Of a stretch of DNA of 64,000 bases, positions 15,228-62,419 are shown one piece after another. Both the position numbers and the translations under genes were made by a program. Where the stretch lies: contig OZ255836.1 of assembly GCA_965277715.1 (NCBI GenBank), forward strand, positions 2,752,001 to 2,816,000. The letters run 5' to 3'. The notes under the pieces are model-generated. The model saw nothing but the letters and a program-made list of their open reading frames with translations, was not told the DNA's origin and made no database searches. The number at the start of each line of letters is the position of its first letter. Positions within the stretch are counted from its first letter, which is position 1. This DNA is from Gammaproteobacteria bacterium (lineage in GTDB: Bacteria; Pseudomonadota; Gammaproteobacteria; JBCCGL01).

Positions 15228-15405
15228 TTTTTGTTTTTTCTCAGCAATTGGATCAAGAGTCAGGCACAAATATTAAAAATGTGATTTAAAGAACTCCCGG
15301 AAAAACCACCCGCTCTGGATTAAGTTTCAAGCAAGCCATATAGCAAATAATATCGAGAACGCAATAATTAAATGTGTAAGATGATATTTGACCCCCTTCG
15401 TTTTT

Positions 15406-15696
15406 CCAGCGGCGGCCAATAGGCCAAGCTCGTAGCCAGAGGAGCTGGCGGTCTTGGTCTTGGTCATGGTCGCGGCGATGGGCTTTGCCGCCACCGAGGT
15501 CAGGGTTTTCGTCAGTAACAGCTCCACACAGGAGAACATAAAACAAAAGAATGCCGCCACGCCAATGCCCGAGTGGATGGTCAGCAAGAAGATTCGCAGG
15601 AAGAAGCGTGGAAATGAATAGCCGTCGATATACGCGGTTTCATCCAGCTCTTTGGGCACGCCGGACATAAACCCATCGAATATCCATACCGCCAGC
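15406..15696 (-). pseudogene. Duplicated internal fragment of the glycerol ABC permease gene (source ~43182-43467)
   Basis: Near-identical DNA with a few substitutions and a 6-bp duplication; starts ~10 bp after TGACCCC (15389). Confidence 0.9.
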
Positions 15697-15889
15697 AGTA
15701 AAAGTGCTTGTCCTTTTGAATATTTTTTTGGTGCCTGCTTTCTTGATTTGCGGTGCAACTTTCCCAAAGTATACTACAATTTTAAGTAGTAGGTTATTGG
15801 TTGGCAAAAAATCTAAACGATACCAATTAAAACTCCTACTACACCAAGCCAACTGTGCTTAATTACCTAACTAATTTTAGGGTTACCTT

Positions 15890-17044
15890 ATGCTACCAAA
15901 AAACAATATCGATATTACCTCGACTCAATACTTTCGCCCCACGTCATTATCAATTGAGTCACTCTTCTACGGTCTACAAGCGTTAAAAAATCCTCCCCCT
16001 CTTTTCAAGCAATTGGGGCTTGATCTGCATTATTTTGAGTTTTCTTCACCTGAAAGTGACAACAAAGACAGGAGGCCACAGGGTGTTACCAAGAAGGGGG
16101 ACTACATCATCAATAGCTGGTATTTTACAAATGATGCTACTTCAACCAATAAAGATAAGTGTAAATTAACAATCGCAGATACCAATACTAATGCCTATGT
16201 TAATGTTGTACCCGTTGAGCGTAATTCAGCAGGAAAATATGAGGGTATCACGTCTCATGCTGGAGGTATCACTATAGTGGGAGACTATTTATACATGGTG
16301 GATAAGATTGGCTCGGATAAGGGAATGAGAGTATTTTCCCTCAATAACATTCTCGAGGTAAACAAAAACACTCAGGATATTGCAACTGATGCCAGTAGCT
16401 TTATACTCGACTATAGTTATATGCTGCCAGAAGTGGGAGTGTTTACTGTCGATACACCGAGTAATGTTAATTTGAGTTATTTGTCTGTGGCGATGATTGA
16501 TAATACATCTTATTTCTTAACGGGTAATTTTTATAAAAGCGACGAATCTAAATACAACGCAGGGGGGAAATCTATGATGTGGCTATTTCCAATAAACACG
16601 AACGGGCCATCTTTTCCCTTTATCGATACAACTGCCAAGACTTATCAAATTGAACCGATGTATCCATCTGGTGAACATAAAAATAAGACAGTTTCTCGTA
16701 TTCAAGGAGCGACGATCACTGATAATGTTTTAATGATCAGCCGCTCTTGGGCTGATAAAAGTTATCAGTTGATTGGAATTGAATATAGTAGGGATATTCG
16801 TAAATTAGATGACTATAAGACTGATAAAATATCAGAATATTTTGATGGAACAGATACTTCACCTGAAAATAATAATGCTAAAAACTGGCTAGTAGGTTGT
16901 GAGAATCTACATCATGATAGGGAGACGGGTAATCTTTATACAGTAACAGAATTTAAGCCAGATTATAGATCGTCACCTGGAAGAAGAAATTATTATGTAG
17001 ACTATGATTCTGTAAAAGCGTTAATTAATCAACCGCCTTCCTAG
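15890..17044 (+). CDS. Hypothetical AT-rich protein, possibly beta-propeller-like
   Basis: 384-aa ORF, beta-rich segments with PQG, HAGG, IQG, GCEN motifs; own terminator. Confidence 0.6.
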   Translation: MLPKNNIDITSTQYFRPTSLSIESLFYGLQALKNPPPLFKQLGLDLHYFEFSSPESDNKDRRPQGVTKKGDYIINSWYFTNDATSTNKDKCKLTIADTNTNAYVNVVPVERNSAGKYEGITSHAGGITIVGDYLYMVDKIGSDKGMRVFSLNNILEVNKNTQDIATDASSFILDYSYMLPEVGVFTVDTPSNVNLSYLSVAMIDNTSYFLTGNFYKSDESKYNAGGKSMMWLFPINTNGPSFPFIDTTAKTYQIEPMYPSGEHKNKTVSRIQGATITDNVLMISRSWADKSYQLIGIEYSRDIRKLDDYKTDKISEYFDGTDTSPENNNAKNWLVGCENLHHDRETGNLYTVTEFKPDYRSSPGRRNYYVDYDSVKALINQPPS

Positions 17045-17056
17045 GCAAATCGATAA

Positions 17057-17091
17057 AAATAAACGAGGCCATAATATGGCCTCGTTTATTT
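17057..17091. terminator. Intrinsic terminator hairpin
   Basis: AAATAAACGAGGCCAT-AAT-ATGGCCTCGTTTATTT perfect 16-bp stem. Confidence 0.8.
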
Positions 17092-17214
17092 GATCCACGG
17101 GTGAGTGAGAAAAGAAAAAAGAAGGCAAGCATATTTTAAACGCCAGGTTATTTTCATCAACACTTGATTCGTCAAAATACTCCTCTTCAGGTTTCCAACA
17201 ATTGTCGAGGTATT

Positions 17215-17362
17215 CCCATCGCCTTAATCCAAATGCTTCAGCAATTTTCCTGAGCCAGCGACCATCTATCTCTCGACACAGGTACATACATATCGAGCGT
17301 GTTAACGGCGTCTGCTGTTCGCCACGTTTGGCGTTTATTAAAACCTCTCTGATCAACTTCAT
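17215..17362 (-). pseudogene. C-terminal HTH remnant of a third, diverged Y1 transposase
   Basis: RSICMYLCREIDGRWLRKIAEAFGL resembles RKLAMYYCQRFGDMSLKAITQHFGL of 20177..21145. Confidence 0.55.
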
Positions 17363-17635: not shown

Positions 17636-17655
17636 AAGTGAAAGGGGTCATATAT

Positions 17656-19215
17656 CAATGGCACTAAGTTAAGCGGTTTTAGCGGGTAAAATAAACGAAA
17701 AAATAACTGTAATAAACCCAACAAAACAGGCTGAAATGTTATAATTTTGTATGAAAAATACAACCTTATTTCTACCCGGATTTAACATCCAAACACTCCG
17801 CAAAACACCCCGTTCAGCCATTCAAATCTTGCACGATAAGATAGCAAAAATACGTCACAAATCACTGAGTGAACTACCTGTTTTTCTTGGCGATATCATA
17901 CCCACGAATATTCTTAAACCGAATGATTGTGGTGTGAATAGTCGTCGACGTATTTTCAGTAAAGAAAATACTTTCTGGTTGTTTTTTTAACAAATAATAA
18001 ACGCCGATGGTGGCTGTAAAGAAGTCGTTAGACAACTGCAAAATGTCGCCCACAACCAAGGCATTCCCATACCTTCATCATCCACCTCCGCCTATTGCCA
18101 AGCACGTAAAAAACTACCCATGGACGATCTTAAAAACGTATTTTCAGGGACGTGTCGATTATCGACACCTCAACCCAAAGCGCTCCAAGGTCGACCGGTT
18201 ATCGTTGCCGATGGGACAGGCCTATCCATGCCCGATACGCCCGCGAATCAACAAACTTACCCACAACCAAAATCACAAACACAGGGATGCGGATTTCCTC
18301 AAGCACGGCTTTTAGCTTGTTTTAATCTTTATAGCGGTTTAATTCTGAGCTATGCACTAGGAAATAAAAAAAGTCATGAGCTAAGACTTTTAGAAGAACA
18401 ATGGGATACCTTCAATGAAGGTGACATTTTCTTAGGTGATAAAGGTTTTTGCAGCTTCTACGATATTGACTGCCTCTCTCGACGAACGGTTGACAGTGTC
18501 GTTACATTGGCGCGGAGAACGCCCAGCACTGCCTCCCAGGCCAAAAAGAAGATAGCCGATAATGACCTTCATATTGAATGGCAAAAACCTAAACACACAA
18601 AAGCGACCCGTTACACAAAAGAGCAGCATAGCGACCTTCCAAAGACCTTAACTTTACGACAAATACACGTCAGTATTGTACGAAAAGGATTTAGGACGAA
18701 CCATTTTTATATCATCACGACACTACTTGATGCTCAGCAATATCCCGCTATAGAAATTATCGACCTCTATGCACAGCGCTGGAATGTGGAACTGTATTTT
18801 CGCAATATTAAAACCACCATGGGTATGGATATATTACGCTGTAAAACACCTGATATGGTTCGTAAGGAAATCATCATGCACATGATTGTTTACAACACGA
18901 TCAGGCACATCATGTGTGTCGCTTCATACCGACATGACACACCGGTTGATCGGCTAAGTCTTAAAGGTGTTTTGCAAACACTCCGACAAAGCACTTCATC
19001 ACTTGGTAGTGGGCAGAGTCCAGCACAAAAAAGACGGCAATATCTTGATTATTTATATGCAGCGATTGCGGATGACCGTGTGCTTCATCGACCTTTTAGG
19101 TTTGAACCAAGAGTGGTAAAAAGGCGACCTAAACCACGGGCATTAATGACTCGACCAAGGAACGTTTTAAAAACTGAATATTGGCAAGCTAAAGCGGCTT
19201 AACTTAGTGCCATTG
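17656..19215 (+). mobile_element. IS4-family element A; transposase 17751..19202 broken by an in-frame TAA (17988-17990)
   Basis: IRs CAATGGCACTAAGTT / AACTTAGTGCCATTG; 11-bp TSD GGGTCATATAT (17645-17655, 19216-19226); DGT, GDKGF, YxxRWxVE. Confidence 0.9.
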
Positions 19216-19218
19216 GGG

Positions 19219-20170
19219 TCATATATGGACCCGCAGTTAAATTCAACAATTTTTTAATCGTTCATTCATTTTTTTAGCGTTCAGAGCAGACACAGTAAAT
19301 AAGGTTAGCAGTCATATATCCGGCTTCTCGATAGGACGGATTGTATTTGTTTATCCGTCCAGAGCCATAATGGGAACCGTGCTCAGACACCTCATCAAGC
19401 AATCGGTCTGTGAAGACCATGACCCCCTCCAGGTTCTGTCTGAGCCGGTTTAACCTGTTATACCCTTTACTGCTCTTTCGCTACCTCGTGGTAAGAAATC
19501 TTCAACGACGTTATTAAACTGTTTTATGCACGTAAGTTGTATTATTAGCCGCTACCGCCCAGCTAATTCTGGCGAGCTTATTGGCCAATGCCACCGCCGC
19601 CACACAATGGCCCCGACGTGCTTTGACACGACAGGCCCAACGACTTAGCCCATCATCGTGTTTAGGCATTCGACTTAATGCCGCTTGCGCCCCCTGTATC
19701 AACAAAGTGCGCACGTGTTCGTCCCCGCGTTTACTGATACCTTTGAGTTGCGTTTTGCCCCCCGAACTATATTGACGAGGAATGAGACCCAAAAAGGCGG
19801 AAAACTCACGCCCGTTTTTATAAAAACCCGGATCGCCCATTGCTGTAAACAAGGCAGTGGCGACCAGAGGCCCTACACCCGGCAGTGTTTTTAATTGCTA
19901 GCAGCGCTCATGCTGGTTACTCAACTGGGTTAACCGTTTTGTGTAGTGTGTTACGCGTTTATCAATCTCCACTCGTTCATCATACAAAGCACTGAACACT
20001 TCACGTGCTGTGCTTGAAAAATATTTTTGGCTAGATCAATACCCAATCGGGTGATATTCTCGTTCATGGACTCGCTCCTACCTTTATTAGGTGATAATAG
20101 ATTGGTTGTGTTACCGCTCAATCTTGGCACATTGTGATGCCGATTCAAAGGGAGCGGGTCCATCCCATCA
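19219..20170 (-). mobile_element. IS110-family (IS1111 group) element, internally deleted
   Basis: GIDLAK start, GLIPRQYSSGGK...AVALANKLAR; subterminal IR ATGGACCCGC; TCA core repeated at both ends. Confidence 0.85.
19307..19446 (-). ncRNA. Putative bridge/seekRNA, copy 1
   Basis: Reverse complement of the structured region at 29262-29401. Confidence 0.6.
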
Positions 20171-20176
20171 GGCAAG

Positions 20177-21145
20177 TTATTTACTATTTAACTGATTTTC
20201 AATTTGATGCATCACCTCTTTAAGTTCTCCCTTGTCCAGCTCTTTCTTGACGTGAGCTATTGCACTCGACACACCACCAGGGTGACTTAACCCAAAATGT
20301 TGAGTAATCGCCTTTAACGACATATCACCAAACCGCTGGCAGTAATACATGGCCAATTTGCGGGGAGTGTTCGCGCTACCTCCCTTACCTTGACTATCCG
20401 AAATACTGCCTTCACTCACTCGGCAACAATTTGCCACCGTTTTTACTATCACACTGCTGGCTACCTTTTCCCGCAATTGGGGCCGCACATCAACGCCACT
20501 CTGGCTTTCTTTGTACTCGGCCAACTGTGAGCGGAACACCTTGTCACCTAACACCGTCGATAGGTTATTTTTGCCGTAAAAGCGCTGTATATCCTCATCA
20601 ATCCCTTGGTCTACATAGTCTGTGTAACATTGACAGTCGTTTTTCACCGGTAAACAGGCATAAACACGATCACGACACAACCAAGCAGGGTTCAATGCTC
20701 TTCCTATGTAAGCCGGGTAACTAGACCAGGGATAGTTCTTTAGCGATTGAACCAGAGGTCGTTTAGTCTCAATGGGGTTTCTATGTATATAGCGAGACAG
20801 GGGTAATAGATACGCATCTTCATCGACATTGATGGCTTTAAATCGCCCTCTAAACTGAGGGCCATCCGTTTTTTTAAGGCGGTTATAACGCTGTGTATAG
20901 ACACCATCGATATGCTGCATAATGCGACTGAGGTTAGCATCAGGTGTTTCCAGCAGTAGGTGGTAGTGATTGCCCATTAGGCAATAAGCGTGAATCACGG
21001 CGTGAAAACGCTCTGCGGCTTCGGTCAATGTGGCGAGAAACGCTTGGTAGTAAGCTTCGCTATGAAAAACCGTCTTACGCTCCCGACCACGGTTTATTAT
21101 ATGGTAGAAGGCGTTTTCATATTCTATGCGGTGAGGTCTTGGCAT
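20177..21145 (-). CDS. Y1 HUH (RAYT/IS200-like) transposase with C-terminal DnaA_C-like HTH, family A copy 1
   Basis: MPRPHR..YH..NRG, NHYHLL (HUH), RYIHRNP, YPWSSY; element ends GGGGTCA (17644, displaced by nested ISs) and TGACCCC (21184). Confidence 0.85.
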   Translation of the reverse strand: MPRPHRIEYENAFYHIINRGRERKTVFHSEAYYQAFLATLTEAAERFHAVIHAYCLMGNHYHLLLETPDANLSRIMQHIDGVYTQRYNRLKKTDGPQFRGRFKAINVDEDAYLLPLSRYIHRNPIETKRPLVQSLKNYPWSSYPAYIGRALNPAWLCRDRVYACLPVKNDCQCYTDYVDQGIDEDIQRFYGKNNLSTVLGDKVFRSQLAEYKESQSGVDVRPQLREKVASSVIVKTVANCCRVSEGSISDSQGKGGSANTPRKLAMYYCQRFGDMSLKAITQHFGLSHPGGVSSAIAHVKKELDKGELKEVMHQIENQLNSK

Positions 21146-21297
21146 GGGGTGATATTGACATAATCTATGATAAATAACTAGCCTGACCCCTTTTCCCTAT
21201 ATGGTAGAAGGCGTTTTCATATTCTATGCGGTGAGGTCTTGGCATGGGGTGATATTGACATAATCTATGATAAATAACTAGCCTGACCCCTTTTCCC
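21098..21297. repeat. 100-bp tandem duplication of the Y1 element end
   Basis: 21098-21197 repeated at 21198-21297, each ending GCCTGACCCCTTTTCCC. Confidence 0.9.
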
Positions 21298-21329
21298 TTT
21301 TTCCCTTTCTTTCCTTATGTTTTTACAAT

Positions 21330-26219: not shown

Positions 26220-26339
26220 AGAGTCTGGCTCGTAATAGTTTTTTAAAATCGTTAAGGTCGCAGCAAGCTAGACTAGTTTTTCGATAATGTAAACTTAAAT
26301 AATGCTTTTTATGAAAGATGAATGAAAGGGGTCAGGCAA

Positions 26340-27905
26340 GAATGGCACTTCCTTAAGCTCTAAGTACATGAAAAATATGGAAGTATTTTCATTGTAAATG
26401 ACCTATTTCTGTTTTTTGGGATGGCCATATTTTTTAACAACACTTCTGGCCACGTTCCTTGGCTGCATCAATAAAGGATATGGTTTGGGTCTTCGTTTAA
26501 CCACTCTTGGTTCAATACGCCCCGGTCGATTACCCACACAGTTTTCTGCAATCAACGCACATAGCGCCAACACCTTATCACTACCCAGAGGGCTACTGCC
26601 TTTCTGATAACGATACGCTACCCAAATTTGTAACGTATGCTTAAAACTTATCTGTCGAGGCAGTATGTCCACTAGTAAGGCAGATTGCGCCATTAATAAG
26701 CGAATAAGGTTGTAAGCTAATATGTGTACCCACATTTCCTTCTCAACCATTTCTGGCGTCTTACAACGGAAGGTGTGCATCTTCATTGTCGTTTTTATAT
26801 GGCGTAAATCAAGTTCGACATGCCAGCGTTCTTTGTAGAGCTGTTTAAGCGCCTCTTTAGACGCCGATTTAACTGATAACAACGTTGTCACCAACAGTTT
26901 TTTACCCACTTTCAGTTCACGTATAACCACTTCATCAGCAGCCGCTTCATAGGCTTCTTCGCTCATCCACTCTGGTCTCTTCTTGGGCTTTGTATAACAA
27001 ATCAGGTGATCCTTCGATCCAAGCCTTTTGCCTTCTCGAAAATCTGTGGATTTACGCCGCGCACCATGCGGCTCAAATACACCGTCTACTCCTTGCTCTA
27101 TAAGGTTTGCTAGAAAAAAATAACCCGCAAAATAGGCATCACCCACCACAATATCACCCGGTTTAAGCGCATTTTGTATTTTTCTCAATAACGTTTGCTC
27201 ATCCGCTCCCTTACCTTTAAAAGGACCCATTGCCGCATCGAGAACACCACCACTGGCTAAACAAATAATTCCTACCCAGCGACAAAGAGGAAAACCGATC
27301 CCCACTTGCTGGCCTGACTGTTGCGGATAAACTACCTGATTTTCAGGCGTATCGGGCATTGTCACAGTGGTGCCGTCAACCAATTTAACTGAACGCCCTT
27401 GCCAGTGCCAGTGACTGGCCGCTTCATTCGCCACACACTCGCCTGTACAACGGGCAAGCCCTGAGACGAGGGGGGTTGGCAGCCTTTGTCGCGCTTTACA
27501 ATAACTCCCTGTATACGTATTACTCACTGATAAACCTTCACTTAATCGCTGTACAGCGAGTGTGTTGACAGCTTGTTGGCAGGACTGATCTGCACTCATT
27601 GTTTGGTATAAAAACAGCGATAAGGTGTCTAGAGGAGGATAGCGACGCGCTCGAAAATCCGGTTGTAATTCTTCCAGTTTCGTAAGTAACTGAGAGGATG
27701 TCAGCAAGTGATAAAAACTCAATGCATCCGAGGATTGAGCTCGGCTTTTGATGCGACGTTGAAGAATGTTGACTTTTACATTACTCTGCATGATGGCTGG
27801 TTCCTGTGGGATAAAGGGTATTTGTGTTGGCAATAAATAACCTACCATAGAACCAGCTTTTTTTGTAATTACTTCAAATACTTACAGCTTAAGGAAGTGC
27901 CATTC
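26340..27905 (-). mobile_element. IS4-family element B copy 1 (1566 bp; transposase 26403..27848)
   Basis: 18-bp IR GAATGGCACTTCCTTAAG; DGT, GDAYF, YKERWHVELDLRHIK. Confidence 0.9.
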
Positions 27906-27916
27906 TAGCCTGACCC

Positions 27917-28124
27917 GAATGGCACTTCCTTAAGCTGTAAGTATTTGAAAGTATTGGTACTACATGCTTGGTTCAGATAACTTGGCATATGGTTCTTGAA
28001 AGCAATATTTGTAAAACTATCCCGGTTATCATTGGCGGCAACTTTCAAAATATCATTTTTTTTCTTAGAAATAATAAATAAACTCTTTACTATCAGTTGC
28101 TTACGTCTTAAGGAAGTGCCATTC
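27917..28124. mobile_element. 208-bp MITE sharing IS4-B terminal IRs
   Basis: GAATGGCACTTCCTTAAG...CTTAAGGAAGTGCCATTC with a non-coding interior. Confidence 0.85.
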
Positions 28125-28208
28125 GGGTCAATGCAGTTATTTCCTATACTTCTTGCTGGAAATCACTGTTTTTATCCGTATTAGTCGTTGTATGGTGAAT
28201 AATAAGCC

Positions 28209-29489
28209 TGATGGGATGGACCCGCTCCCTTTGAATCGGCATCACAATGTGCCAAGATTGAGCGGTAACACAACCAATCTATTATCACCTAATAAAAGGT
28301 AGGAGCGAGTCCATGAACGAGAATATCACCCGATTGGGTATTGATCTAGCCAAAACTATTTTTCAAGTGTGTGGTGCTAATAAACACGGTAAAGTGGTGT
28401 TTAATAAAAAAACTTAAACGCGATCAGCTACCGTCTTATATCGCCAATGTACCGGCCTGTGAGGTGGTGATGGAAGCGTGTGCGACGTCCAGTTATTGGT
28501 CGCAGGTTTTCACACGCTACGGCCATACAGTCAAACTCATTAACCCAGCCTATGTACGCCCTTACGTTAAAACAAAGAAGAACGATGCAGCGGATGCAGA
28601 GGCGCTGTGTGAAGCAGCCTCACGTCCGAGTATGCGATTTGTTCAGCCCAAAACACCCGACCAACAAGACAGCCAATTACTCCACCGGGTGCGCAGTCGG
28701 CTAGTGTCAAAACGGACGAGTTTAAGTAATCAGATAAGAGGGTTACTGGGTGAGTATGGGCTGATTATTCCGGTGGGTATTCACCACGTTCACCAGCACT
28801 TGCCTGCGCTTTTAGAGGATGCTGAAAACGGGTGTAGGGCCTCTGGTCGCCACTGCTTTGTTTGTAGCAATGGGTGATCCGGGTTTTTATAAAAATGGGC
28901 GTGAGTTTTCCGCCTTTTTGGGTCTCGTTCCTCGTCAATATAGTTCGGGGGGCAAAACACAACTCAAAGGTATCAGTAAACGCGGAGACGAACACGTGCG
29001 CACTTTGTTGATACAGGGGGCGCAAGCGGCATTAAGTCGAATGCCTAAACACGATGATGGGCTAAGTCGTTGGGCCTGTCGTGTCAAAGCACGTCGGGGC
29101 CATTGTATGGCGGCGGTGGCATTGGCCAATAAGCTCGCCAGAATTAGCTGGGCGGTAGCGGCTAATAATACAACTTACGTGCATAAAACGGCTTAATAAC
29201 GTCGTTGAAGATTTCTTACCACGAGGTAGCGAAAGAGCAGTAAAGGGTATAACAGGTTAAACCGGCTCAGACAGAACCTGGAGGGGTCATGGTCTTCACA
29301 GACCGATTGCTTGATGAGGTGTCTGAGCACGGTTCCCATTATGGCTCTGGACGGATAAACAAATACGATCCGTCCTATCGAGAAGCCGGATATATGACTG
29401 CTAACCTTATTTACTGTGTCTGCTCTGAACGCTAAAAAATGAATAAACGATTAAAAAATTGTTGAATTTAACTGCGGGTCCATATATGA
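28209..29489 (+). mobile_element. IS110-family (IS1111 group) element, transposase 28313..29196 frameshifted and deleted
   Basis: GIDLAK, VMEAC, KNDAADAEA DEDD motifs; subterminal IRs ATGGACCCGC (28216) / GCGGGTCCAT (29474); TGA core at both ends; ~290-bp 3' non-coding end. Confidence 0.9.
29262..29401 (+). ncRNA. Putative bridge/seekRNA with target- and donor-binding loops
   Basis: Stem CTCAGACA(GAA)CCT/AGGTGTCTGAG enclosing AGGGGTCA and TTGCTTGA; second loop with TCCCATTA and ATATATGA. Confidence 0.7.
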
Positions 29490-32889: not shown

Positions 32890-32961
32890 CGCCTTAGTTT
32901 TTTATATACCCGTGTATTAAATGCCCATTGGGTAAGTGAAAGAATGAAAGGGGTCAGGCCA

Positions 32962-34527: not shown

Positions 34528-34633
34528 TGCATTGACCCCTTTTATGTTAATAACTATAAGCTATTGATTCTATTTCACTTTATTCCTTAGCCTGACGGCT
34601 ATGCCGCACACCCCTTATACTTTTGATTCCGAG

Positions 34634-36673: not shown

Positions 36674-36866
36674 TAATCGACCGGGGCGTATTGAACCAAG
36701 AGTGGTTAAACGAAGACCCAAACCGTATCCTTTATTGATGCGGCCAAGGGACGTGGCCAGAGGTGTTGTTAAAAAATATGGCCATCCCAAAAAACAGAAA
36801 TAGGTCATTTACAATGAAAGTACTTCCATATTTTTCATGTACTTAGAGCTTAAGGAAGTGCCATTC
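36674..36866 (+). mobile_element. IS4-B right-end fragment
   Basis: Matches the 3' end of copy 2 including the IR; followed by GGGTCAGGCAA. Confidence 0.85.
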
Positions 36867-40446: not shown

Positions 40447-40464
40447 TAATTAACCCCTTTTCCT

Positions 40465-52151: not shown

Positions 52152-52480
52152 TCTACGCAACTATGTAACCCTCTAAATGCCTTTAGAAAATTAACGATGG
52201 CCTCTGGATCCATTTTCGATTGAGGGAATTTATGCTTAAGAATTAAAAAAAAATTAATTAAAATTGGTTGCCCCTGAAATTTTCTGCTACTCTAACTATA
52301 GTTAGAAAACAATAATACTAAATATCAAAGGCCTCTGTATTGTTTTTAGTATCAAAATGAGAAAAGTATAGCGATATGAATCAGCCACTTACAAAAATAT
52401 CTCAATACTTGGGAAGAATTAAGAGGCCACCTCATAATAATGTTACAGAGGTCTTTGGCCTTTGTAACATACTGTTAGCT
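52152..52480 (+). repeat. Promoter/attI-like block, copy 1
   Basis: ~325 bp non-coding; ends TAAC-ATACT-GTTAGCT; repeated at 60400 and 62509. Confidence 0.7.
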
Positions 52481-52501
52481 TCTCCGGAGAAATAGAGAAT
52501 T

Positions 52502-53257
52502 ATGTGGGGGTTTTCTGGATCAGTTGAATACGTATGCGATGGCTGTGGAGCTAGTGGTGAGGTTCCCATAGTAGATTTCTCTGTAGAGTGTGTGGGTGGC
52601 GGTGATCGCCAAATGGGGCCAGAAAACTTATATGATGTAATTTATGAGTTCGAGTGTGCCGACTGTGGTGTAGATATCTCGCTTAACTTTCAAGTATCTG
52701 AGTATCCAACAGAAGTACTAAATTTCATACTAAACAACTCAACTGGGGCACAAACTGAGGGTGAACCGGGATTTGAGTATGTTAGAGAAATTTACAGTGC
52801 GAGAGATTTATTTTATCTACATGAATCAATTTCAGAACTGATCACGGCTTTGAAAGAAGATGATCAGCTTCTTAGTGCAATAACATCTCGTCAGTTCGAG
52901 GAAATTGTTGCTGAAGTCTTTAAGTCTAAAGGTTATGAAGTAGAATTAACTAAAAAGACAAGAGATGGCGGCAAGGATATTATTGCTATCCACACTGACT
53001 CATTAGACATAAGAAATAAGTACTTTATTGAGTGCAAATATTACGCGGAAAGTAACAAAATTAGTGTTGATGTAGTGCGCGCACTATATGGGGTTAAGAA
53101 TACGATGGATGGCCCTAATAAAGCAATCGTAGTGACGACTTCGACTTTCACTAGTGATGCGAGAAAGTTTGTAGAAAATGAGGCATCTAGCAGTTGGGAT
53201 TTATCTCTGGTAGATAGAGAGCAGCTACTTCAGTGGTTAAATGAGTACAAAAGCTAA
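52502..53257 (+). CDS. Mrr-cat-like restriction endonuclease with N-terminal Zn-ribbon (cassette 1)
   Basis: CxxC..CxxC; FEEIVAE, DGGKD, IECK, VTTSTFT. Confidence 0.8.
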   Translation: MWGFSGSVEYVCDGCGASGEVPIVDFSVECVGGGDRQMGPENLYDVIYEFECADCGVDISLNFQVSEYPTEVLNFILNNSTGAQTEGEPGFEYVREIYSARDLFYLHESISELITALKEDDQLLSAITSRQFEEIVAEVFKSKGYEVELTKKTRDGGKDIIAIHTDSLDIRNKYFIECKYYAESNKISVDVVRALYGVKNTMDGPNKAIVVTTSTFTSDARKFVENEASSSWDLSLVDREQLLQWLNEYKS

Positions 53258-53323
53258 CAAAGCGCTGCTGTCGGACAAATTCTCCGCTGCACTCCAAATT
53301 TGCCGTAGAGCGCGGCGTTATGC
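53252..53323 (+). other. Integron attC site
   Basis: AGCTAAC...GTTATGC, 72 bp, imperfect palindrome; AGCTAAC is complementary to the cassette start GTTAGCT. Confidence 0.85.
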
Positions 53324-53374
53324 AAGACGACTGACCTTCATCAGATGTAACAATGTAGCTACGCTGGAAACTAA

Positions 53375-55993
53375 ATGGCCCTTCTGAACGACATACTGAA
53401 TTGGACTGAATCTCTTACAACATGGCAAAGGGATGCATGTCGTCGCCTGTTCCAGAAAGAAGCTGAACTAGACGAAGCCGATTACTCTGAACTCTACAGT
53501 ATCCTCAAGACTGAGAACGGGATACAGATTGATGATGCCCCTGTTTCAGTCCCACTGACCGGTGATCATCTTCCTGCCGAGGTAGTCTCCGGTGACACTC
53601 TTACTCTTGTCGCTTTACGGGACTTGAAAAACGTTAATCAGATCCCGAGTGATCGCGCCCTAAATTTCTCAGAAGCAGGGATGACGGTTATCTATGGGGG
53701 GAATGGATCTGGCAAGTCAGGCTATGCACGCGTTATGAAGAGAGCCTGCCGGGCTAGAGATCAATCGGAGCCGATCCATCCCAATGCACACGATCCCACT
53801 GCAGCCGCGAAAGAACCGACGGCGAAGTTTGAAATACTAATTTCTGGCACCTCAGAAGAGGTTGCATGGTCACGCAACTCAACTCCGCCGGAACGCCTCT
53901 CCTCAATTTCCGTCTTCGATTCAAAGTGCGCTCGCTCATATGTCACAGCGGAGCAGGATGTCGCCTATCTCCCCTACGGTCTTGATATTGTTGAAAACCT
54001 CGCAAATCAAGTTCTCCCGAAACTTTCGGAGATGCTTGAATCAGAGGTCGGGGGAATAGATGTCAGCAAACTTCCTTTCGAGCACCTCCTTGGCGAAACT
54101 GAAGTAGGCAAAGTAGCTGAAGATCTTTCCGTCAAATCAGACACTGACGCAATTACTTTGCTCGGAACTTTCAGTGCAGAGGACGCACAGCGGCTAGCGG
54201 AGCTCGAAGCAGCTCTCAAGGAAGGTAATCCTCTGGCTAAAGCTGAAGAGGCTCGACTTTCAGGCATGCGTTTGAAGGCTTACTCAGAGAAACTAACTAA
54301 ACCTCTAAACTGGGTCAGTCCAGAAGCAGCTGAAAAACTTCAGAAACTCGACGAAGAAAAGACTATCGCAGAGGAAGCCGAGAAGAAAGCAGCAGATGCC
54401 TTACGCGCTGGGGAGGAGTTGCTACCTGGAACTGGAGACCAAGAATGGAAGCTGCTCTTTGAAGCAGCCAGACGCTACTCAACCGAAGCTGCGTATCCGG
54501 GAGAGGAGTTTCCATCTCCTGCCGAGGGAAAGGACTGCCCATTATGCCAAGAAGAGTTGCCTGAAAGTGGGTCTAAACGCCTCAAAAGATTTAACGAGTA
54601 TATCCAGAATGATGTCGCGACAACTGCCGACGCGGCACGTAAAAAGGTCGAAACAGCAAGGAGCAAGATTGAAACGGCAGAGCTTCAAATCACTCCAGAT
54701 AAAGCTCTAGGCGATGAACTCAAATCGTTAGATGACTCAGTTCTTCAATCAATCAGTGATTTCCAAACTTCCATCGATTTACGGCGGGATTCGATGCTTG
54801 AGTGCCTCGGAACATCTAAATGGGTTGAGATCCCTGTTTTGATTGACTCCCCAAGGAGCCTAGTTAGGCAGCTTGCCGCGCAGCAACTGCAGGTATTTCG
54901 CACACTGGTCAAAGCGGCGGACGAAGATAAGCGGATAAAGCTCGAGAAAGAACACCGCGAACTTTTGGCGAGGCAAAATCTATCCAAGTGCTTAAAGGCC
55001 GTCCTTGAATTGCTTGATCGCATGAAGACAAAGGCGGCACTTGAAAAGTGCAGGCCCTGTCTCAAAACTCGTCCGATTTCTGACAAGTCGAAGGAGTTTT
55101 CCACTGTCGCTGTAACTGATGAGCTCAGGAAAGCCCTCGACAAAGAGTTCAATGTGCTAGGCATCGGTCACATCAAGACGAAGCTGAAGGAAAAAAGCGT
55201 CCGAGGCAAGATGCTTCACCAACTATTGCTCGACCTGCCAATTGCAAACAAGATCGAAGAAATTTTGAGCGAAGGTGAGCAGCGTGCTATTGCACTGGGT
55301 TCATTTTTTGCCGAATTAGCCCTCGCTAATCACTCGTGCGGAATTGTCTTCGATGATCCTGTATCGTCTTTAGATCATTGGCGTCGCCTTAATGTGGCAC
55401 GCAGGTTGGTGGAGGAAGCGAAGAGTCGGCAAGTCATCGTGTTCACTCATGACACTTCGTTTCTTGGCCAATTATGCGACGAAATCGAAGCTGAGGGCAT
55501 TCCGAGTTCAAAATCGTTTTTGGAATGGCGTGGCGGCTTACCAGGTAGCGTAAACGATGGTCTTCCTTGGGATCACCAAAGCTACAAAGCACGAATCAAC
55601 TCTCTCGAACAAGCGCAGAACAAGTTAGCTAAGGCTTGGCCAGCGTATCCGGGTGAGGCCGAGATTAGCGCAATAAGACATGAGTACGACCGTTTACGAG
55701 CTACGCTCGAACGGGTCATTCAGGATGTTGTTTTTAATGGTGTTGTAAAGCGGTATCGAGACTGGATACGAGTTGACTCTCTTGAAGATGTTGTAGGCTT
55801 TGATCGGCCTGAGTATGAAGCGATCGAGAAGCTACACAAGCGAAGCTGTGATGTAGTAACTGCACACGATCCTGCGTCAGCGAAGGCCGCAGCTGTTCCA
55901 ACGGCGACAGATCTCGGAAATGATATATCTGCTTTGAAGACTATTGTTAAAACTATTAAAAACCGTAGAAAGGCCGCAAAGGCAGCGTCTTAG
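53375..55993 (+). CDS. Rad50/SMC-like ABC ATPase with Zn-hook (RloC/AAA_13-like; cassette 2)
   Basis: GGNGSGKS, coiled coil with CPLC, LSEGE, FDDPVSSLD, FTHD. Confidence 0.75.
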   Translation: MALLNDILNWTESLTTWQRDACRRLFQKEAELDEADYSELYSILKTENGIQIDDAPVSVPLTGDHLPAEVVSGDTLTLVALRDLKNVNQIPSDRALNFSEAGMTVIYGGNGSGKSGYARVMKRACRARDQSEPIHPNAHDPTAAAKEPTAKFEILISGTSEEVAWSRNSTPPERLSSISVFDSKCARSYVTAEQDVAYLPYGLDIVENLANQVLPKLSEMLESEVGGIDVSKLPFEHLLGETEVGKVAEDLSVKSDTDAITLLGTFSAEDAQRLAELEAALKEGNPLAKAEEARLSGMRLKAYSEKLTKPLNWVSPEAAEKLQKLDEEKTIAEEAEKKAADALRAGEELLPGTGDQEWKLLFEAARRYSTEAAYPGEEFPSPAEGKDCPLCQEELPESGSKRLKRFNEYIQNDVATTADAARKKVETARSKIETAELQITPDKALGDELKSLDDSVLQSISDFQTSIDLRRDSMLECLGTSKWVEIPVLIDSPRSLVRQLAAQQLQVFRTLVKAADEDKRIKLEKEHRELLARQNLSKCLKAVLELLDRMKTKAALEKCRPCLKTRPISDKSKEFSTVAVTDELRKALDKEFNVLGIGHIKTKLKEKSVRGKMLHQLLLDLPIANKIEEILSEGEQRAIALGSFFAELALANHSCGIVFDDPVSSLDHWRRLNVARRLVEEAKSRQVIVFTHDTSFLGQLCDEIEAEGIPSSKSFLEWRGGLPGSVNDGLPWDHQSYKARINSLEQAQNKLAKAWPAYPGEAEISAIRHEYDRLRATLERVIQDVVFNGVVKRYRDWIRVDSLEDVVGFDRPEYEAIEKLHKRSCDVVTAHDPASAKAAAVPTATDLGNDISALKTIVKTIKNRRKAAKAAS

Positions 55994-56002
55994 CAAAGCA
56001 AT

Positions 56003-56074
56003 GCATAACAAGGCGCTGCTGTCGGACAAATTTTCCGCTGCGCTCCAAATTTGCCGCAGAGCGCGGCGTTAGAT
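56003..56074 (+). other. Integron attC site
   Basis: GCATAAC...GTTAGAT, near-identical to the first attC; GCATAAC is complementary to GTTATGC. Confidence 0.85.
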
Positions 56075-56231
56075 GCCAAATGGAGTTCTGATTTGAGACC
56101 TGTATATTTTCTTTTTTTACTATCTATTTCTGGTGTTTTGTGGGCACAACAAATGAAAAGGGGTCAATCCTATTTAAAATGAAAAGGGGTCAATCCTATT
56201 TAATATTTTCAAAATAGTATAAATTTAAACG

Positions 56232-57083
56232 ATGCCTAAACCTACTCGAATACAATACGAAAATGCCTACTACCACGTTATGAATCGTGGCAAAGCCAGA
56301 CAGACCATCTTTCATGGCGAAATTTACTACCAGGCATTTCTACAAACGCTCGATGAAGCACATAAACGCTTTGATGCCTACATCCACGCTTACTGTTTGA
56401 TGGGTAATCATTATCATCTATTGATCGAAACCCCTCGTGCTAATCTGGATCGCATCATGCGGCATATCAATGGTATCTACACACAACGCTACAACCGGCT
56501 TAGACGCACGGATGGGCCTCTTTTTCGCGGTCGTTATAAAGCGATTATTGTGGATGCAGACGACTACTTATTACCCTTAAGCCGTTACATTCATCGTAAC
56601 CCAATAGAAGTAAAGGGTGTAACAGCAGATAAGCTCGATAGCTATTCCTGGTCGAGTTACCACGCTTACATCAACCAAGCCAAAGCACCGGAATGGTTGT
56701 ATCGAGAGGCAACCTATAGTGCACTCGGCGCTAAACAACGTTACGTTGCTTATAAGACATATGTTGGTCAAGGTATTGATGAGGGCATTAGCCGTTTTTA
56801 TAACAAAGGCAATGTGACGACGATACTGGGTGACAAATCCTTCAAGACGTATATTGCCGAAAACCGGGAGTCGATGCACATATCGGGGGACTTGTCCCGT
56901 ATTGTGACGGACAAGCCAAACGGTGCAGCTATAGTCGATGCAGTGGCAGCGGTGTTTGGCGTTAACGCGAGTGATGTACTTACGCGACAGCGGGGGAGAC
57001 AACGGGCGAATCTGCCTCGTAAAGTAGCGATATATTGTTGTCAGCAATTGGGAGATATGCCGTTAAAAACGCTGGTTGAGTAG
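56232..57083 (+). pseudogene. Y1 HUH transposase family B copy 1, 3'-truncated by a small deletion (element 56186..57192)
   Basis: NHYHLL, RYIHRNP; GGGGTCA/TGACCCC ends; 26-bp tandem duplication 56151-56202. Confidence 0.85.
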
Positions 57084-57390
57084 CCTTTCTCCTGCAATTG
57101 ATTATGTAAAGAGTGGGCTGTCAACGGCGGCGTGAAGGGCGTGTTTGAGCAGGTTTGCAACCGTTTGAAAAATATTAAATACGATTGACCCCTTTTTTTT
57201 CGCTCACTCAAATGGGCGAGTTTTTAATCCCAGTGGAAGTTGATCAAAGTTTCAAAAGTTAACAGGACAGCAGTGAATTACAAAATAAAAAATTCAGAAA
57301 ATAAAATATCTGGCCAATCTTTGGCGGTGTATTTTTATAATACTTTTTAAGAACTTTTTGTGTTTAACTTTTTACCTTGGAGGATAAAAA

Positions 57391-59324: not shown

Positions 59325-59407
59325 CTGTCACCTAATTTTGTAATTATTTCATGAGTCAAAAGGGGTCAATCTTATTTAATATTTTCAAAATAGTATAAAT
59401 TTAAACG

Positions 59408-60388
59408 ATGCCTAGACCTACTCGAATACAATACGAAAATGCCTACTACCACGTTATGAATCGTGGCAAAGCCAGACAAACCATCTTTCATGGCGAAATT
59501 TACTACCAGGCATTTCTACAAACGCTCGATGAAGCACATAAACGCTTTGATGCCTGCATCCACGCTTACTGTTTGATGAGTAATCATTATCATCTATTGA
59601 TCGAAACCCCTCGTGCTAATCTGGATCGCATCATGCGGCATATCAATGGTATCTACACACAACGCTACAACCGGCTTAGACGCACGGATGGGCCTCTTTT
59701 TCGCGGTCGTTATAAAGCGATTATTGTGGATGCAGACGACTACTTATTACCCTTAAGCCGTTACATTCATCGTAACCCAATAGAAGTAAAAGGTGTAACA
59801 GTGGATAAGCTCGATAGCTATTCCTGGTCGAATTACCACGCTTACATCAACCAAGCCAAAGCACCAGAATGGTTGCATCGAGAGGCAACCTATAGTGCAC
59901 TCGGCGCTAAACAACGTTACGTTGCTTATAAGACATATGTTGGTCGAGGTATTGATGAGGACATTAGCCGTTTTTATAACAAAGGCAATGTGGCGACGAT
60001 ACTGGGTGACAAATCCTTCAAGACGTATATTGCCGAAAACCGGGAGTCGATGCACATATCGGGGGACTTATCCCGTATTGTGACGGACAAGCCAAACGGT
60101 GCAGCTATAGTCGATGCAGTGGCAGCGGTGTTTGGCGTTAACGCGAGTGATGTACTTACGCGACAGCGGGGTAAACAACGGGCGAATCTGCCTCGTAAAG
60201 TAGCGATATATTGTTGTCAGCAATTGGGGGATATGCTGTTAAAAACGCTGGTTGATATGTTTGAATATAGTCGTGTTAGTAGCCTTTCTCCTGCAATTGA
60301 TTATGTAAGGAGTGGGCTATCAGACGGCAGCTTGAAGGGCGTGTTTGAGCAGGTTTGCAACCGTTTGAAAAATATTAAATACGATTGA
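59408..60388 (+). CDS. Y1 HUH transposase family B copy 2, intact (element 59362..60392)
   Basis: HUH and Tyr motifs; the stop TGA lies inside terminal TGACCCC. Confidence 0.85.
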   Translation: MPRPTRIQYENAYYHVMNRGKARQTIFHGEIYYQAFLQTLDEAHKRFDACIHAYCLMSNHYHLLIETPRANLDRIMRHINGIYTQRYNRLRRTDGPLFRGRYKAIIVDADDYLLPLSRYIHRNPIEVKGVTVDKLDSYSWSNYHAYINQAKAPEWLHREATYSALGAKQRYVAYKTYVGRGIDEDISRFYNKGNVATILGDKSFKTYIAENRESMHISGDLSRIVTDKPNGAAIVDAVAAVFGVNASDVLTRQRGKQRANLPRKVAIYCCQQLGDMLLKTLVDMFEYSRVSSLSPAIDYVRSGLSDGSLKGVFEQVCNRLKNIKYD

Positions 60389-60399
60389 CCCCTTTTTTT

Positions 60400-60726
60400 T
60401 CTACGCAACTATGTAACCCTCTAAATGCCTTTAGAAAGTTAACGATGGCTTCTGGATCCATTTTCGGTTGAGGGAATCTATGCTTAAGAATTAAAAAAAT
60501 TAATTAAAATTGGCTGCCCCTAAAATTTTCTGCTACTCTAACTGTAGCTAGAAAACAATAATACTAAATATCAAAGGCCTCTGTATTGTTTTTAGTATCA
60601 AAATGAGAAAAATATAGCGATATGAATCAGCCACTTACAAAAATTTCTCAATACTTGGGAAGAATTAAGAGGCCACCTCATAATAATGTTACAGAGGTCT
60701 TTGGCCTTTGTAACATACTGTTAGAT
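60400..60726 (+). repeat. Promoter/attI-like block, copy 2
   Basis: Near-identical to 52152-52478; ends TAACATACTGTTAGAT. Confidence 0.7.
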
Positions 60727-60744
60727 TCATCATAGAAGTTTTGA

Positions 60745-61659
60745 GTGAAAAATAACAATCTCTATATAATCGGTAATGGATTCGATATCTATCATGGGAT
60801 TCCCTCACGTTATTCGGATTTCAAGGAGTATTTGAAATCAAGTAATCAAACCCTGCATGATCACGTCATCGAGTATCTTCCTGTAGAAGAAAACTGGTGT
60901 GATCTTGAGGTCGCTTTTGCGCACCTAGATGTTGATAATGTAATTGATGAAGCAATGCAGTATCTTCAAACATATTCTGCTGAGAATTGGAGTGATTCGT
61001 TTCATCATGACTATCAATTTGAGCTTGATAAGATAGTTTCGGATCTTTCTAGCGGCCTAAAGTCATATTTTTGTGAATGGATAACTCACCTTGAATTACC
61101 GTCACCCAATAGCCTTCCATGTGAGCCACTTCGAATAAATAGGAAAGGATGTTTTTTAACCTTTAATTACACAAGAACACTTCAATGTGTCTACGGTGTG
61201 GGCAATGATAATGTCATACATATACATGGTGAGTCCGAACAAGGTGAGTCTGAAATAGTATTAGGGCACTCCTGGAATCCAGAAGAAATCTCTGATCTAA
61301 ATGATGTTCCAAATCCAGAGGATATGGACACAAGGGTTATGGAAGGGAATGAAATAGTAAATGACTATCTTGGAAAAACCTTTAAGCCATCAAAGAAAAT
61401 AATCGAAGATAATGCGTTTTTCTTTTCTAATCTCTCCAGCGTTAATAAAGTATATGTTCTAGGTCACTCCATGTCAGAGGTTGACCTCCCTTACTTTGAA
61501 GAGATAAGAGGGAATGTTAACGAAAACGCTGAATGGATCGTGACTTACTACGGAGAAGAAGAGCTTGATCGTCACAAAGAAACGATCCGAAGCCTAGGAA
61601 TAGAGAATGTCAGATTTTGTGACTTTTCAGATATTACAAAAGGGGGCAATCCTATTTAA
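60745..61659 (+). CDS. AbiH-family abortive-infection protein
   Basis: LYIIGNGFD..H, LTFNYT, HIHG, GHSMSEVD.PYF; last codons come from the Y1 element end. Confidence 0.8.
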   Translation: MKNNNLYIIGNGFDIYHGIPSRYSDFKEYLKSSNQTLHDHVIEYLPVEENWCDLEVAFAHLDVDNVIDEAMQYLQTYSAENWSDSFHHDYQFELDKIVSDLSSGLKSYFCEWITHLELPSPNSLPCEPLRINRKGCFLTFNYTRTLQCVYGVGNDNVIHIHGESEQGESEIVLGHSWNPEEISDLNDVPNPEDMDTRVMEGNEIVNDYLGKTFKPSKKIIEDNAFFFSNLSSVNKVYVLGHSMSEVDLPYFEEIRGNVNENAEWIVTYYGEEELDRHKETIRSLGIENVRFCDFSDITKGGNPI

Positions 61660-61687
61660 TATTTTCAAAATAGTATAAATTTAAACG

Positions 61688-62332
61688 ATGCCTAGACCTA
61701 CTCGAATACAATACGAAAATGCCTACTACCACGTTATGAATCGTGGCAAAGCCAGACAGACCATCTTTCATGGCGAAATTTACTACCAGGCATTTCTACA
61801 AACGCTCGATGAAGCACATAAACGCTTTGATGCCTGCATCCACGCTTACTGTTTGATGGGTAATCATTATCATCTATTGATCGAAACCCCTCGTGCTAAT
61901 CTGGATCGCATCATGCGGCATATCAATGGTATCTACACACAACGCTACAACCGGCTTAGACGCACAGATGGGCCTCTTTTTCGCGGTCGTTATAAAGCGA
62001 TTATTGTGGATACAGACGACTACTTATTACCCTTAAGCCGTTACATTCATCGTAACCCAATAGTGGCAGCGGTGTTTGGCGTTAACGCGAGTGATGTACT
62101 TACGCGACAGCGGGGGAGGCAACGGGCGAATCTGCCTCGTAAAGTAGCGATATATTGTTGTCAGCAATTGGGAGATATGCCGTTAAAAACGCTGGTTGAT
62201 ATGTTTGTATATAGTCGTGTTAGTAGCCTTTCTCCTGCAATTGATTATGTAAAGAGTGGGCTGTCAGACGGCAGCTTGAAGGGCGTGTTTGAGCAGGTTT
62301 GCAACCGTTTGAAAAATATTAAATACGATTGA
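61688..62332 (+). pseudogene. Y1 HUH transposase family B copy 3, in-frame deletion of 112 aa (element 61642..62336)
   Basis: RNPI joined directly to VAAVFG; left end variant GGGGGCA. Confidence 0.85.
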
Positions 62333-62419
62333 CCCCTTTTTGTTCTTTTTGTTTTCATCGTCTTCTTTCAGCAAACGCAAGGTCTTTATGTCCTCGATAT
62401 TCTGATCATGGTTTGCCAA

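Follow-up and report, generated by a model that had tools for sequence, protein, structure and literature searches.

The window analysed here is a stretch of 64,000 nucleotides from a member of the Gammaproteobacteria (GTDB lineage JBCCGL01; assembly GCA_965277715.1, contig OZ255836.1, positions 2,752,001 to 2,816,000), in which the heptamer GGGGTCA and its complement TGACCCC recur beside genes for single-tyrosine (Y1) transposases of the HUH type. With a probability of about 0.8, the region is a pile-up of nested transposons on a variable island with integron-type cargo, in which the heptamer marks transposon ends and the places where other transposons have landed. A first-pass annotation of the same DNA had taken the motif to be the recombination site of an integron-like platform that captures genes. 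This was not borne out: inward-facing pairs of motif copies, termed tips below, enclose only transposase genes and nested insertion sequences, and the cargo has integron-type boundaries. The capture platform is left unsupported because three roles, those of transposon end, IS4 duplication and IS1111 guide, account for the motif, and because the boundaries of the cargo are attC-like sites and GTTA, not tips.

In the proposed history, a variable chromosomal island made up of a decayed integron cassette array, defence genes, an adhesin and Rhs fragments would have been entered by three kinds of transposon, namely TIRtrons, IS4-family elements and IS1111-group elements. The TIRtrons, of about 1.03 kb, would each comprise a gene for a single-tyrosine HUH transposase of the RAYT/IS200 superfamily, with a C-terminal helix-turn-helix of the DnaA domain IV kind, between tips composed of a purine tract and GGGGTCA; by analogy to IS200/IS605 and RAYT they would move as single strands without target duplication. 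The IS4-family elements would insert at the tip always in the same register, with duplication of an 11-bp GGGTCAnnnnn, so that each hit would double the motif. The IS1111-group element would integrate past GGGGTCA, its guide consisting of a target loop with GGGGUCA and an arm complementary to TCAGGCAA. Homologous recombination between copies may then have inverted and deleted DNA, leaving genes cut beside tips and flanks that do not match.

Tips were counted and junctions mapped in the window on both strands. GGGGTCA occurs 30 times, against 5.98 ± 2.25 in shuffled sequences, none of which (0 of 100) reached 30. The 10-mer AAAGGGGTCA, i.e. three leading A's and GGGGTCA, was found 17 times where 0.15 are expected, always within 17641-62339. 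Every coordinate at which the first-pass annotation had placed GGGGTCA or TGACCCC holds the exact motif, apart from the variant GGGGGCA at 61642, which had been marked as such. The 30 sites can be sorted into 19 inverted-repeat tips, three sites inside copies of an IS110-family element (19420, 29283 and 40036, missing from the earlier list) and eight in ordinary genes, a number close to that expected by chance. About one third of the motif copies are due to other insertion sequences landing on the tip, either as IS4 duplications or as IS1111 guides. The statement that the motif bounds each Y1 copy needs to be divided: it stands for the Y1 elements, and fails for the pairs 17644/19215, 26328-29487 and 32950/34533, which are tips with IS4-family and IS110-family elements sitting inside. 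The coordinates of all features are given in Table 1.

The Y1 elements of the window are TIRtrons, a kind of element already published. In Di Nocera, De Gregorio and Rocco 2013 (PMC3733652), RAYT-like genes with terminal inverted repeats are called 'TIRtrons' and their proteins 'TIRYT', with the shared motif GGGGWSAS. The work of Quentin et al. 2018 (PMC6006769) places most TIRYT in subclass 2.1, with the consensus GGGG[AT][CG]A[CG] and no hairpins of the repetitive extragenic palindromic (REP) type; it assigns Bac_DnaA_C to group 2.1.2 and describes class 2 genes as low-copy, with little similarity between copies. The Y1 subclass with GGGG-containing repeats to which the first-pass annotation had alluded thus exists, under the name TIRYT/TIRtron. 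The elements share with it a RAYT-like Y1 HUH protein of about 320 aa, terminal inverted repeats in place of REP hairpins, the GGGGWSAS motif and the helix-turn-helix of Bac_DnaA_C. The repeat of family A (GGGGTCAG) fits GGGGWSAS at 8 of 8 positions and that of family B (GGGGTCAA) at 7 of 8; the repeats do not fold alone (-1 to -1.7 kcal/mol). The C-terminal Bac_DnaA_C-like helix-turn-helix and a core without insertions are as in subclass 2.1.2, an assignment made from these features.

Five reading frames with Y1_Tnp and Bac_DnaA_C were identified with Pfam, in agreement with the five Y1 transposase copies reported earlier; they fall into two families, and a third family survives as a remnant. 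The Y1_Tnp domain is matched over its full length with no large gaps, at 51-58 bits (cut-off 23); Bac_DnaA_C is found in all five genes with E values of 3e-07 to 2e-05 and 25-31 bits, below the gathering cut-off of 31.5 bits. An alignment of 15 sequences, which extends to Desulfobacterota, Chlamydiales and Entotheonella, shows no variation in the HUH motif NHYHLL or in the tyrosine motif RYIHRNP. In a profile search of the C-terminal third against PDB, DnaA domain IV (2hcb) was matched with an E value of 5e-14; by this comparison of profiles, the C-terminal third of TIRYT is a true homologue of DnaA domain IV. A PDB search with the single TIRYT sequence returned nothing significant, and the profile search returned the DnaA domain alone and no solved RAYT. 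A protein search returned over 7000 clusters, of proteins about 324 aa long, in which Y1_Tnp and Bac_DnaA_C occur together.

REPtrons, whose transposases (RAYT, TnpA-REP) belong to the same enzyme superfamily, resemble the elements in that inverted copies of a short repeat flank the gene and also occur alone or clustered, but the repeats in the window lack the GTAG-tagged hairpin, and the NCBIfam RAYT model reaches 58-62 bits against a cut-off of 80. The IS200/IS605 elements (IS608, ISDra2) share the Y1 HUH chemistry and the absence of a target duplication; they differ in their subterminal hairpins, in the lack of terminal inverted repeats and in a shorter transposase (about 130-150 aa), whereas the proteins here have 322-326 aa and the elements have terminal inverted repeats. 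The NCBIfam IS200 model gives 25 bits on the Y1 proteins of the window against a cut-off of 55. Direct repeats are absent from the flanks of the Y1 elements in the window, in agreement with the earlier remark that no target-site duplications are visible.

Conservation of the tip was examined in 80 loci of relatives taken from species genomes, of which 65 have both flanks and 73 were scored for the upstream flank. With both flanks at hand (many phyla), GGGTCA upstream together with TGACCC downstream was found in 43 loci, 32 of them with the full 7-mer; 19 loci have the motif on one side and three on neither. GGGTCA lies at most 150 nt upstream in 63 of the 73, at a median of 51 nt from the ATG, against 16 of 628 control windows placed far upstream. 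Since relatives from many phyla carry GGGTCA and TGACCC on the two sides, GGGGTCA is the conserved tip of the whole TIRtron family and not a feature peculiar to this locus. The median length from tip to tip is 1034 bp, so that there is room for the gene and none for cargo; two of 41 relatives (L026 and L028) are outliers of about 3.1 kb. A close strain of the organism of the window was not among the genome contigs scanned, the best relative being 63% identical.

The terminal inverted repeats of family B are 33 nt long (AAAAGGGGTCAATCCTATTTAATATTTTCAAAA), and the family A repeat is AAAGGGGTCAGGC[A/T]AGTTATTTA. The three B copies of the window are 96-99% identical and the two A copies 99%. Protein clusters of the B, A and deleted B forms hold 11, 7 and 3 member sequences, respectively, on one contig of 4.29 Mb. 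Contigs from public sequencing runs carry several different flanks directly before 56182 and after 57197-57199, and the 336-bp internal deletion of B3 was also found in contigs of three runs; joints at 37925-37959 with short sides (24-30 letters) probably belong to the flanks of other copies and were left out. The TIRtron copies show the features of a multi-copy insertion sequence with defective derivatives, because near-identical copies, clustered members, varied flanks and a recurring 336-bp deletion occur together. This sets them apart from the published class 2: near-identical copies, deletion derivatives and gene-less miniatures are present side by side, as in an active insertion sequence. 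The interiors of the A-type and miniature-element repeats (36903-36920 and 28136-28146) contain GTTATTTAC / GTTATTTCC, which loosely resemble a DnaA box and may be candidate sites for the DnaA-like C-terminal domain of TIRYT.

Elements of the IS4 family were identified with NF033592 of NCBIfam, whose cut-off of 115 bits is exceeded with scores of 216 and 168. They have a DDE_Tnp_1 transposase, terminal inverted repeats and, for IS4b and a metagenome contig (L095) described below, an 11-bp direct repeat. IS4a-1 and IS4a-2 lie in inverted repeats of 1595 nt that are 99% identical. Nine IS4-type junctions were mapped in the window, all in one register (17645, 19216, 26329, 27906, 28125, 32951, 34528, 36867 and 40447), and at every one of them the IS4 end adjoins GGGTCAnnnnn or its complement nnnnnTGACCC. 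Elsewhere in the same population, a contig has an IS4a end joined to GGGTCAATCC of a B tip, again in this register (place 56187). A third and more distant IS4-like transposase gene (31002-32315, minus strand, 437 aa) scores 67 bits with NF033592, against the same cut-off of 115, and no convincing ends were found for it.

The same association was looked for outside the window by scanning metagenome contigs for the IS4 end pattern AATGGCACTNNNTTAAGC, which gave at least 125 loci; 123 distinct ends with a 40-nt flank were counted. Among these listed ends of the IS4 subgroup, GGGTCA stands at -11 in 16 (three at all other offsets) and TGACCC at -6 in 9 (none elsewhere); with the relaxed pattern GGG[AT][CG]A the numbers are 23 and 13. 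Landing of IS4 elements on TIRtron tips thus recurs in metagenomes, and in the same register. About 70% of the listed ends have no GGGTCA-type flank, and the targeting is for this reason a preference and no rule. Position counts around the listed ends approximate GGGTCWGACCC, which the IS4 target would resemble. Near the tips in the 80 loci of relatives, one real IS4-type end was found (L021), which is uninformative. In L095, a gene-less miniature of about 95 bp with GGGGTCA tips has been hit by an IS4-end remnant and has a perfect 11-bp repeat. Its inverted repeats are of the AAAAAATGGGGTCAGGTTCACATTTC type, and a 24-bp remnant of two IS4-type ends, possibly an excision footprint, lies between the perfect 11-bp repeats.

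The element IS231A, of the IS4 family, has the target GGG(N)5CCC, with a hot spot in the terminal repeat of Tn4430. The IS4 elements described here agree with it in family, in the 11-bp duplication, in a target with GGG and CCC at its ends and in the preference for the terminal repeat of another transposon; they differ in belonging to another subgroup, in having ends of the form [G/C/T]AATGGCACT...TTAAGC and in the preferred site, which is the TIRtron tip. A review of the family (PMC2266710) describes insertion specificity for IS231A and a 'spectacular' specificity for some elements of the IS4 subgroup.

The third kind of transposon was identified by hits to PF01548 and PF02371, and one piece reaches 140.3 bits with NF033542 against a cut-off of 140. 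According to Durrant et al. 2024 (PMC11208160), the IS1111 group has a short left end, a long right end, subterminal repeats of 7-17 bp and a bridge RNA in the right end. The elements of the window have a DEDD transposase, a left end of about 100 nt and a right end of about 290 nt (copy 2), subterminal repeats of 9 bp and predicted loops. Copy 2 is inserted between ...AATAAGCC-TGA and CCCCTTTT, i.e. past the GGGGTCA of a gene-less element of about 95 bp, and copy 1 occupies the same point of the A1 left repeat. When IS4b, one copy of its duplication and IS1111 copy 1 were excised in silico, AAAGGGGTCA followed by GGCAAGTTATTTACTATTTAAC was obtained, which is the intact left end of A2. The IS4b duplication includes five bases of the IS1111 end, and the order of arrival is for this reason read as TIRtron, then IS1111, then IS4b.

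Folding of the right-end RNA gave z = -4.4 and two internal loops around hairpins. In the target loop, the GGGGUCA arm is complementary to TGACCCC and the UUGCUUGA arm pairs with TCAGGCAA with one G-U; in the donor loop, UCCCAUUA pairs with the left end TGATGGGA, and AUAUAUGA equals the right end. The internal GGGGTCA copies at 19420, 29283 and 40036 are explained by their place in the predicted guide loop of the IS1111-type copies. The element probably integrates after GGGGTCA under the guidance of a predicted bridge RNA. A search of Rfam gave no family in the IS1111 region (a chance miRNA match, E 0.34) and none at the gathering score in the whole window. Homing of IS1111-group elements to the repeats of others is described for IS4321/IS5075 into Tn21-family terminal repeats, for IS1111-attC, and for IS621 and ISPpu9 into REP (PMC11208160, PMC12288879). 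The element here resembles these in the DEDD transposase, the subterminal repeats, the long right end, the fixed point in the repeat of another element and the loops that match the target and its own ends; it differs in that the target is a TIRtron tip. Searches of the literature collection used gave no paper linking TIRYT repeats with IS110 or IS4, and the best 10 of 107 matches in one of them were irrelevant.

The cargo at 52-64 kb, outside the transposons, has boundaries of its own. Two imperfect palindromes of 66 bp with RYYYAAC...GTTRRRY-like ends bracket the full-length candidate defence gene PDC-S06 (53375-55993; PADLOC, E 2.8e-189) in a single unit of 2751 bp, and the same attC-like palindrome was found in at least four other contexts in run X10. 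A 340-bp block occurs three times (52152-52491, 60400-60737 and, without its first approximately 90 bp, 62518-62762). The copies diverge directly after CTGTTA (GTTAGCT, GTTAGAT, GTTATAT), a GTTRRRY-like core, and the defence-type gene that comes next differs from copy to copy: the Mrr-like PDC-S02 gene (52502-53257; PADLOC, Pfam), AbiH (60745-61659) and a SngA/TerB_N gene from 62801 on. In run X1, from another sponge metagenome, the first 1101 letters of a 1362-letter contig lie on 51374-52477 and are followed by 261 non-matching letters; the point of departure is the GTTA core, with no tip. A degenerate intI-like N-terminus in three frames at 32749-32985 stops at a tip (Pfam E 0.065, the piece being too short for significance). 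For the right part of the region, the best reading is that of an integron-type cassette array in decay, with defence genes as its content; such arrays have recently, it is reported, been found to be stores of defence systems.

Both integrons and the ISCR/IS91 elements form arrays of unrelated accessory genes, the latter with HUH chemistry. Integrons differ from the Y1 elements in their phage-integrase-type tyrosine recombinase with attC and attI, and the attC-like and GTTA features found here are unrelated to GGGGTCA. ISCR/IS91 elements differ in their unlike ends and in capture by read-through, which is not tied to GGGGTCA in this region.

Several genes are cut at tips. The fragments ugpE' (15406-15696, 95% identical to 43183-43467) and glpD' (17403-17635, 98% identical to 41282-41514) stop short of a tip by 9-10 nt, a distance taken up by the purine/pyrimidine tract of the repeat itself. 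The order of the two is reversed against the intact operon at 41-44 kb, and they are separated by an uncharacterised 384-aa gene and a TIRYT remnant; in run X7, a contig shows the same odd order from ugpE' to glpD' (joint 43467->41282). An IS4a remnant (36674) and a solo tip (35067) interrupt the Rhs frame, and AbiH runs into B3, so that at least five genes (ugpE', glpD', Rhs, the AbiH tail and the intI-like remnant) end within about 10 nt of a tip. Insertion into genes and later recombination among the many copies would account for the cuts, the particular histories being inferred.

The capture of genes, as put forward in the first-pass annotation, would have the Y1 enzymes use GGGGTCA as a recombination site at which unrelated genes are assembled between elements, as in an integron. 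In its favour, the cutting and rejoining of single strands is established for HUH enzymes, a number of genes stop within about 10 nt of a tip, and conflict and surface cargo does lie between outward-facing tips; the last observation stands as it was made, but the pattern is the one expected from any run of insertions. Inside inward-facing tip pairs there is no cargo at all, the cassettes end at attC-like or GTTA boundaries, to which the departure of the contig from another population at the GTTA core can be added, the motif surrounds single elements without room for cargo in the 43 of 65 relatives with median length 1034 bp, and about a third of its copies are IS4 duplications and IS1111 guides. 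Capture is for the authors a very unlikely account of the array. Mobilisation as a composite, in which two TIRtron copies move the cassette between them or recombination between copies shuffles element and cargo with no dedicated capture, is also considered unlikely. It would suit the three near-identical B copies that, in direct orientation, alternate with single defence modules at 56-62 kb, and the deleted B copies with the same 336-bp gap in three runs, which imply that defective copies spread; but the window holds no duplicated cargo module that bears tips, and the relatives give no indication of long composite forms beyond the two outliers of about 3.1 kb among 41. In a related and rather far-fetched form, paired TIRtron copies would mobilise the DNA between them: the Y1 enzyme would act jointly on the right tip of one copy and the left tip of the next, and defence cassettes would leave and re-enter the DNA as tip-bounded single-strand circles, a second, HUH-based shuffling layer on a decaying integron; if this were true, the tandem duplications of tips described below would be scars of such events.

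Two further accounts concern the motif and the assembly. GGGTCAnnnnn could be the inverted repeat of the IS4 elements themselves, shared with the Y1 ends by common ancestry, as the inverted orientation in which it flanks IS4a-1 and IS4a-2 might suggest. Against this, IS4b has the 11-mer as a direct repeat, the five variable bases differ between the ends of copies that are 99% identical, both orientations occur beside the same type of end in the listed metagenomic ends (16 and 9 of 123), and about 70% of these ends are without the motif; the idea is exceedingly improbable. Next to no weight is given to an assembly artefact in which repeats were mis-joined. The region is indeed dense in repeats of 1-1.6 kb at which short-read contigs break, but over unique stretches the contigs of run X7 are identical to the window, one contig has the ugpE'-to-glpD' order, and the resolution of nested junctions restores intact ends, unlike a random mis-join.

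Some points weigh against the nested-transposon account. The tips on the two sides of IS4a-1, of IS4a-2 and of the 208-bp miniature have opposite polarity and form no direct repeats; separate hits and subsequent recombination are the inferred history. The equal 11-mers at 26329/36867 and 28125/34528 were tried as halves of single IS4a insertions split by an inversion, and this was rejected, since the same end of the element is found at both junctions. One end is duplicated in tandem in four of the five TIRtron copies, with units of 26, 30, 33 and 100 bp that always comprise the tip and 6-9 nt of its exterior (21082-21301, 36867-36925, 37896-37967 and 56151-56202), and similar short reiterations are present in at least 9 of the 41 relatives, in other phyla too (e.g. 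L008, L018, L023, L025, L040, L056, L062 and L071). These recurrent duplications are left unaccounted for by nesting and are unlike those made by IS4; nicking and rejoining at the tip by the HUH enzyme may produce them as a side effect. For the guide arms, 20000 shuffles gave 6 instances of the target pair, 97 of the donor pair and none of the two combined, in a test designed after the matches had been seen, and relative to the element the arms of the bridge RNA stand in the opposite order to those of IS621. The mechanism given for TIRYT transposition is one of analogy, and the genes that end near tips, compatible as they are with nested insertions, are equally so with deletion driven by the elements or with capture.

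The motif and the elements are already in print, and the finding is in the main an ordinary one, which removes the need for a new gene-capture system. TIRYT genes are usually described as low-copy and possibly domesticated, and with its features of an active insertion sequence the family here makes the organism of the window a candidate for asking whether TIRYTs transpose at all. One short tip is met by three unrelated chemistries (HUH, DDE and RNA-guided DEDD). Recurrence of the IS4 part in unrelated metagenomes implies that TIRtron tips may commonly seed nests of insertion sequences, and the IS1111-type copy would offer a natural pair of bridge RNA and target that can be read directly from sequence, the RNA being predicted.

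Table 1. Transposons, tips and cargo of the window, from left to right (+, plus strand; -, minus strand;., no strand assigned).
Feature	Position	Strand	Details
Solo right-type tip, further repeat type	15340..15405	.	TGACCCCC at 15389-15396 and pyrimidine tract; adjoins ugpE fragment starting 15406
Third-family TIRYT C-terminal remnant (DnaA_C-like helix-turn-helix)	17021..17362	-	113-aa frame; Bac_DnaA_C E 3.7e-5, 24 bits, under the Pfam cut-off
TIRtron A1, left tip	17636..17655	+	Purine tract AAGTGAAAG and GGGGTCA; 17645-17655 is the first copy of the IS4b 11-bp duplication; glpD fragment stops at 17635
IS4b, IS4 family, reading frame broken	17656..19215	+	Perfect 11-bp direct repeat GGGTCATATAT at 17645-17655 and 19216-19226
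IS1111-group copy 1, internally deleted	19222..20170	-	After GGGGTCA of the A1 left repeat
TIRtron A1, body	20171..21301	-	TIRYT gene 20177-21145 (-), 322 aa; right end in tandem, 100-bp unit, tips 21184 and 21284
A-type left tip	26325..26339	+	AAAG and GGGTCAGGCAA; adjoins IS4a-1
IS4a-1, IS4 family	26340..27905	-	1566 bp, 481-aa transposase
Right-type tip	27906..27916	.	Exactly 11 bp (TAGCCTGACCC), between two facing IS4a ends (27873-27949)
Miniature derivative with IS4a-type ends	27917..28124	.	208 bp
Gene-less element with GGGGTCA-type tips, about 95 bp	28125..28211	.	Left tip, body and start of right tip; rest of right tip at 29487-29497, past IS1111-type copy 2
IS1111-group copy 2, frame broken	28212..29489	+	1278 bp; short left end, 290-nt right end, 9-bp subterminal repeats TGGACCCGC/GCGGGTCCA
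Predicted bridge RNA loops	29260..29400	+	Target loop GGGGUCA (29283)/UUGCUUGA (29307); donor loop UCCCAUUA (29334)/AUAUAUGA (29390); hairpin in each
IS4a-2 with tips	32947..34542	+	IS4a-2 at 32962-34527, between left-type tip GGGTCAGGCCA and right-type tip TGCATTGACCC
Solo AAAGGGGTCA tip	35067..35076	-	In truncated Rhs reading frame
IS4a right-end remnant	36674..36866	+	193 bp; adjoins GGGTCAGGCAA of the A2 left repeat
TIRtron A2	36867..37967	-	Gene 36909-37877 (-), 322 aa; left tip doubled (30-bp unit), right tip doubled (33-bp unit)
Remnants and degenerate tip	39684..40461	.	IS1111-type 3' remnant (39684-40192), IS4b right-end remnant (40193-40446), degenerate tip TAATTAACCCCTTTT
Integron-type cassette cargo, outside transposons	52152..56071	+	340-bp block (52152-52491, GTTA core), Mrr-like gene, attC-like 53255-53320, PDC-S06, attC-like 56006-56071
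TIRtron B1	56151..57200	+	Gene 56232-57083, truncated (283 aa); left tip doubled (26-bp unit)
TIRtron B2, intact	59358..60400	+	Gene 59408-60388, intact (326-aa TIRYT); 33-nt terminal inverted repeats starting AAAAGGGGTCAATC
TIRtron B3, internal deletion	61638..62341	+	Gene 61688-62332 (214 aa); left tip variant GGGGGCA; overlaps final AbiH codons; joint 56605->56942

In the sequencing runs, the depth over repeats is far above that over unique DNA and is no measure of copy number. Bins 52510-55834 have no cover in runs X1 and X4, which does not amount to absence, and run X10 holds only diverged repeats, at low depth. Among the neighbouring genes, a STAND-type ATPase with a small partner is found at 57391-59324, and an adhesin, an Rhs fragment, a PIN gene and the ugp/glpD operon lie further left.

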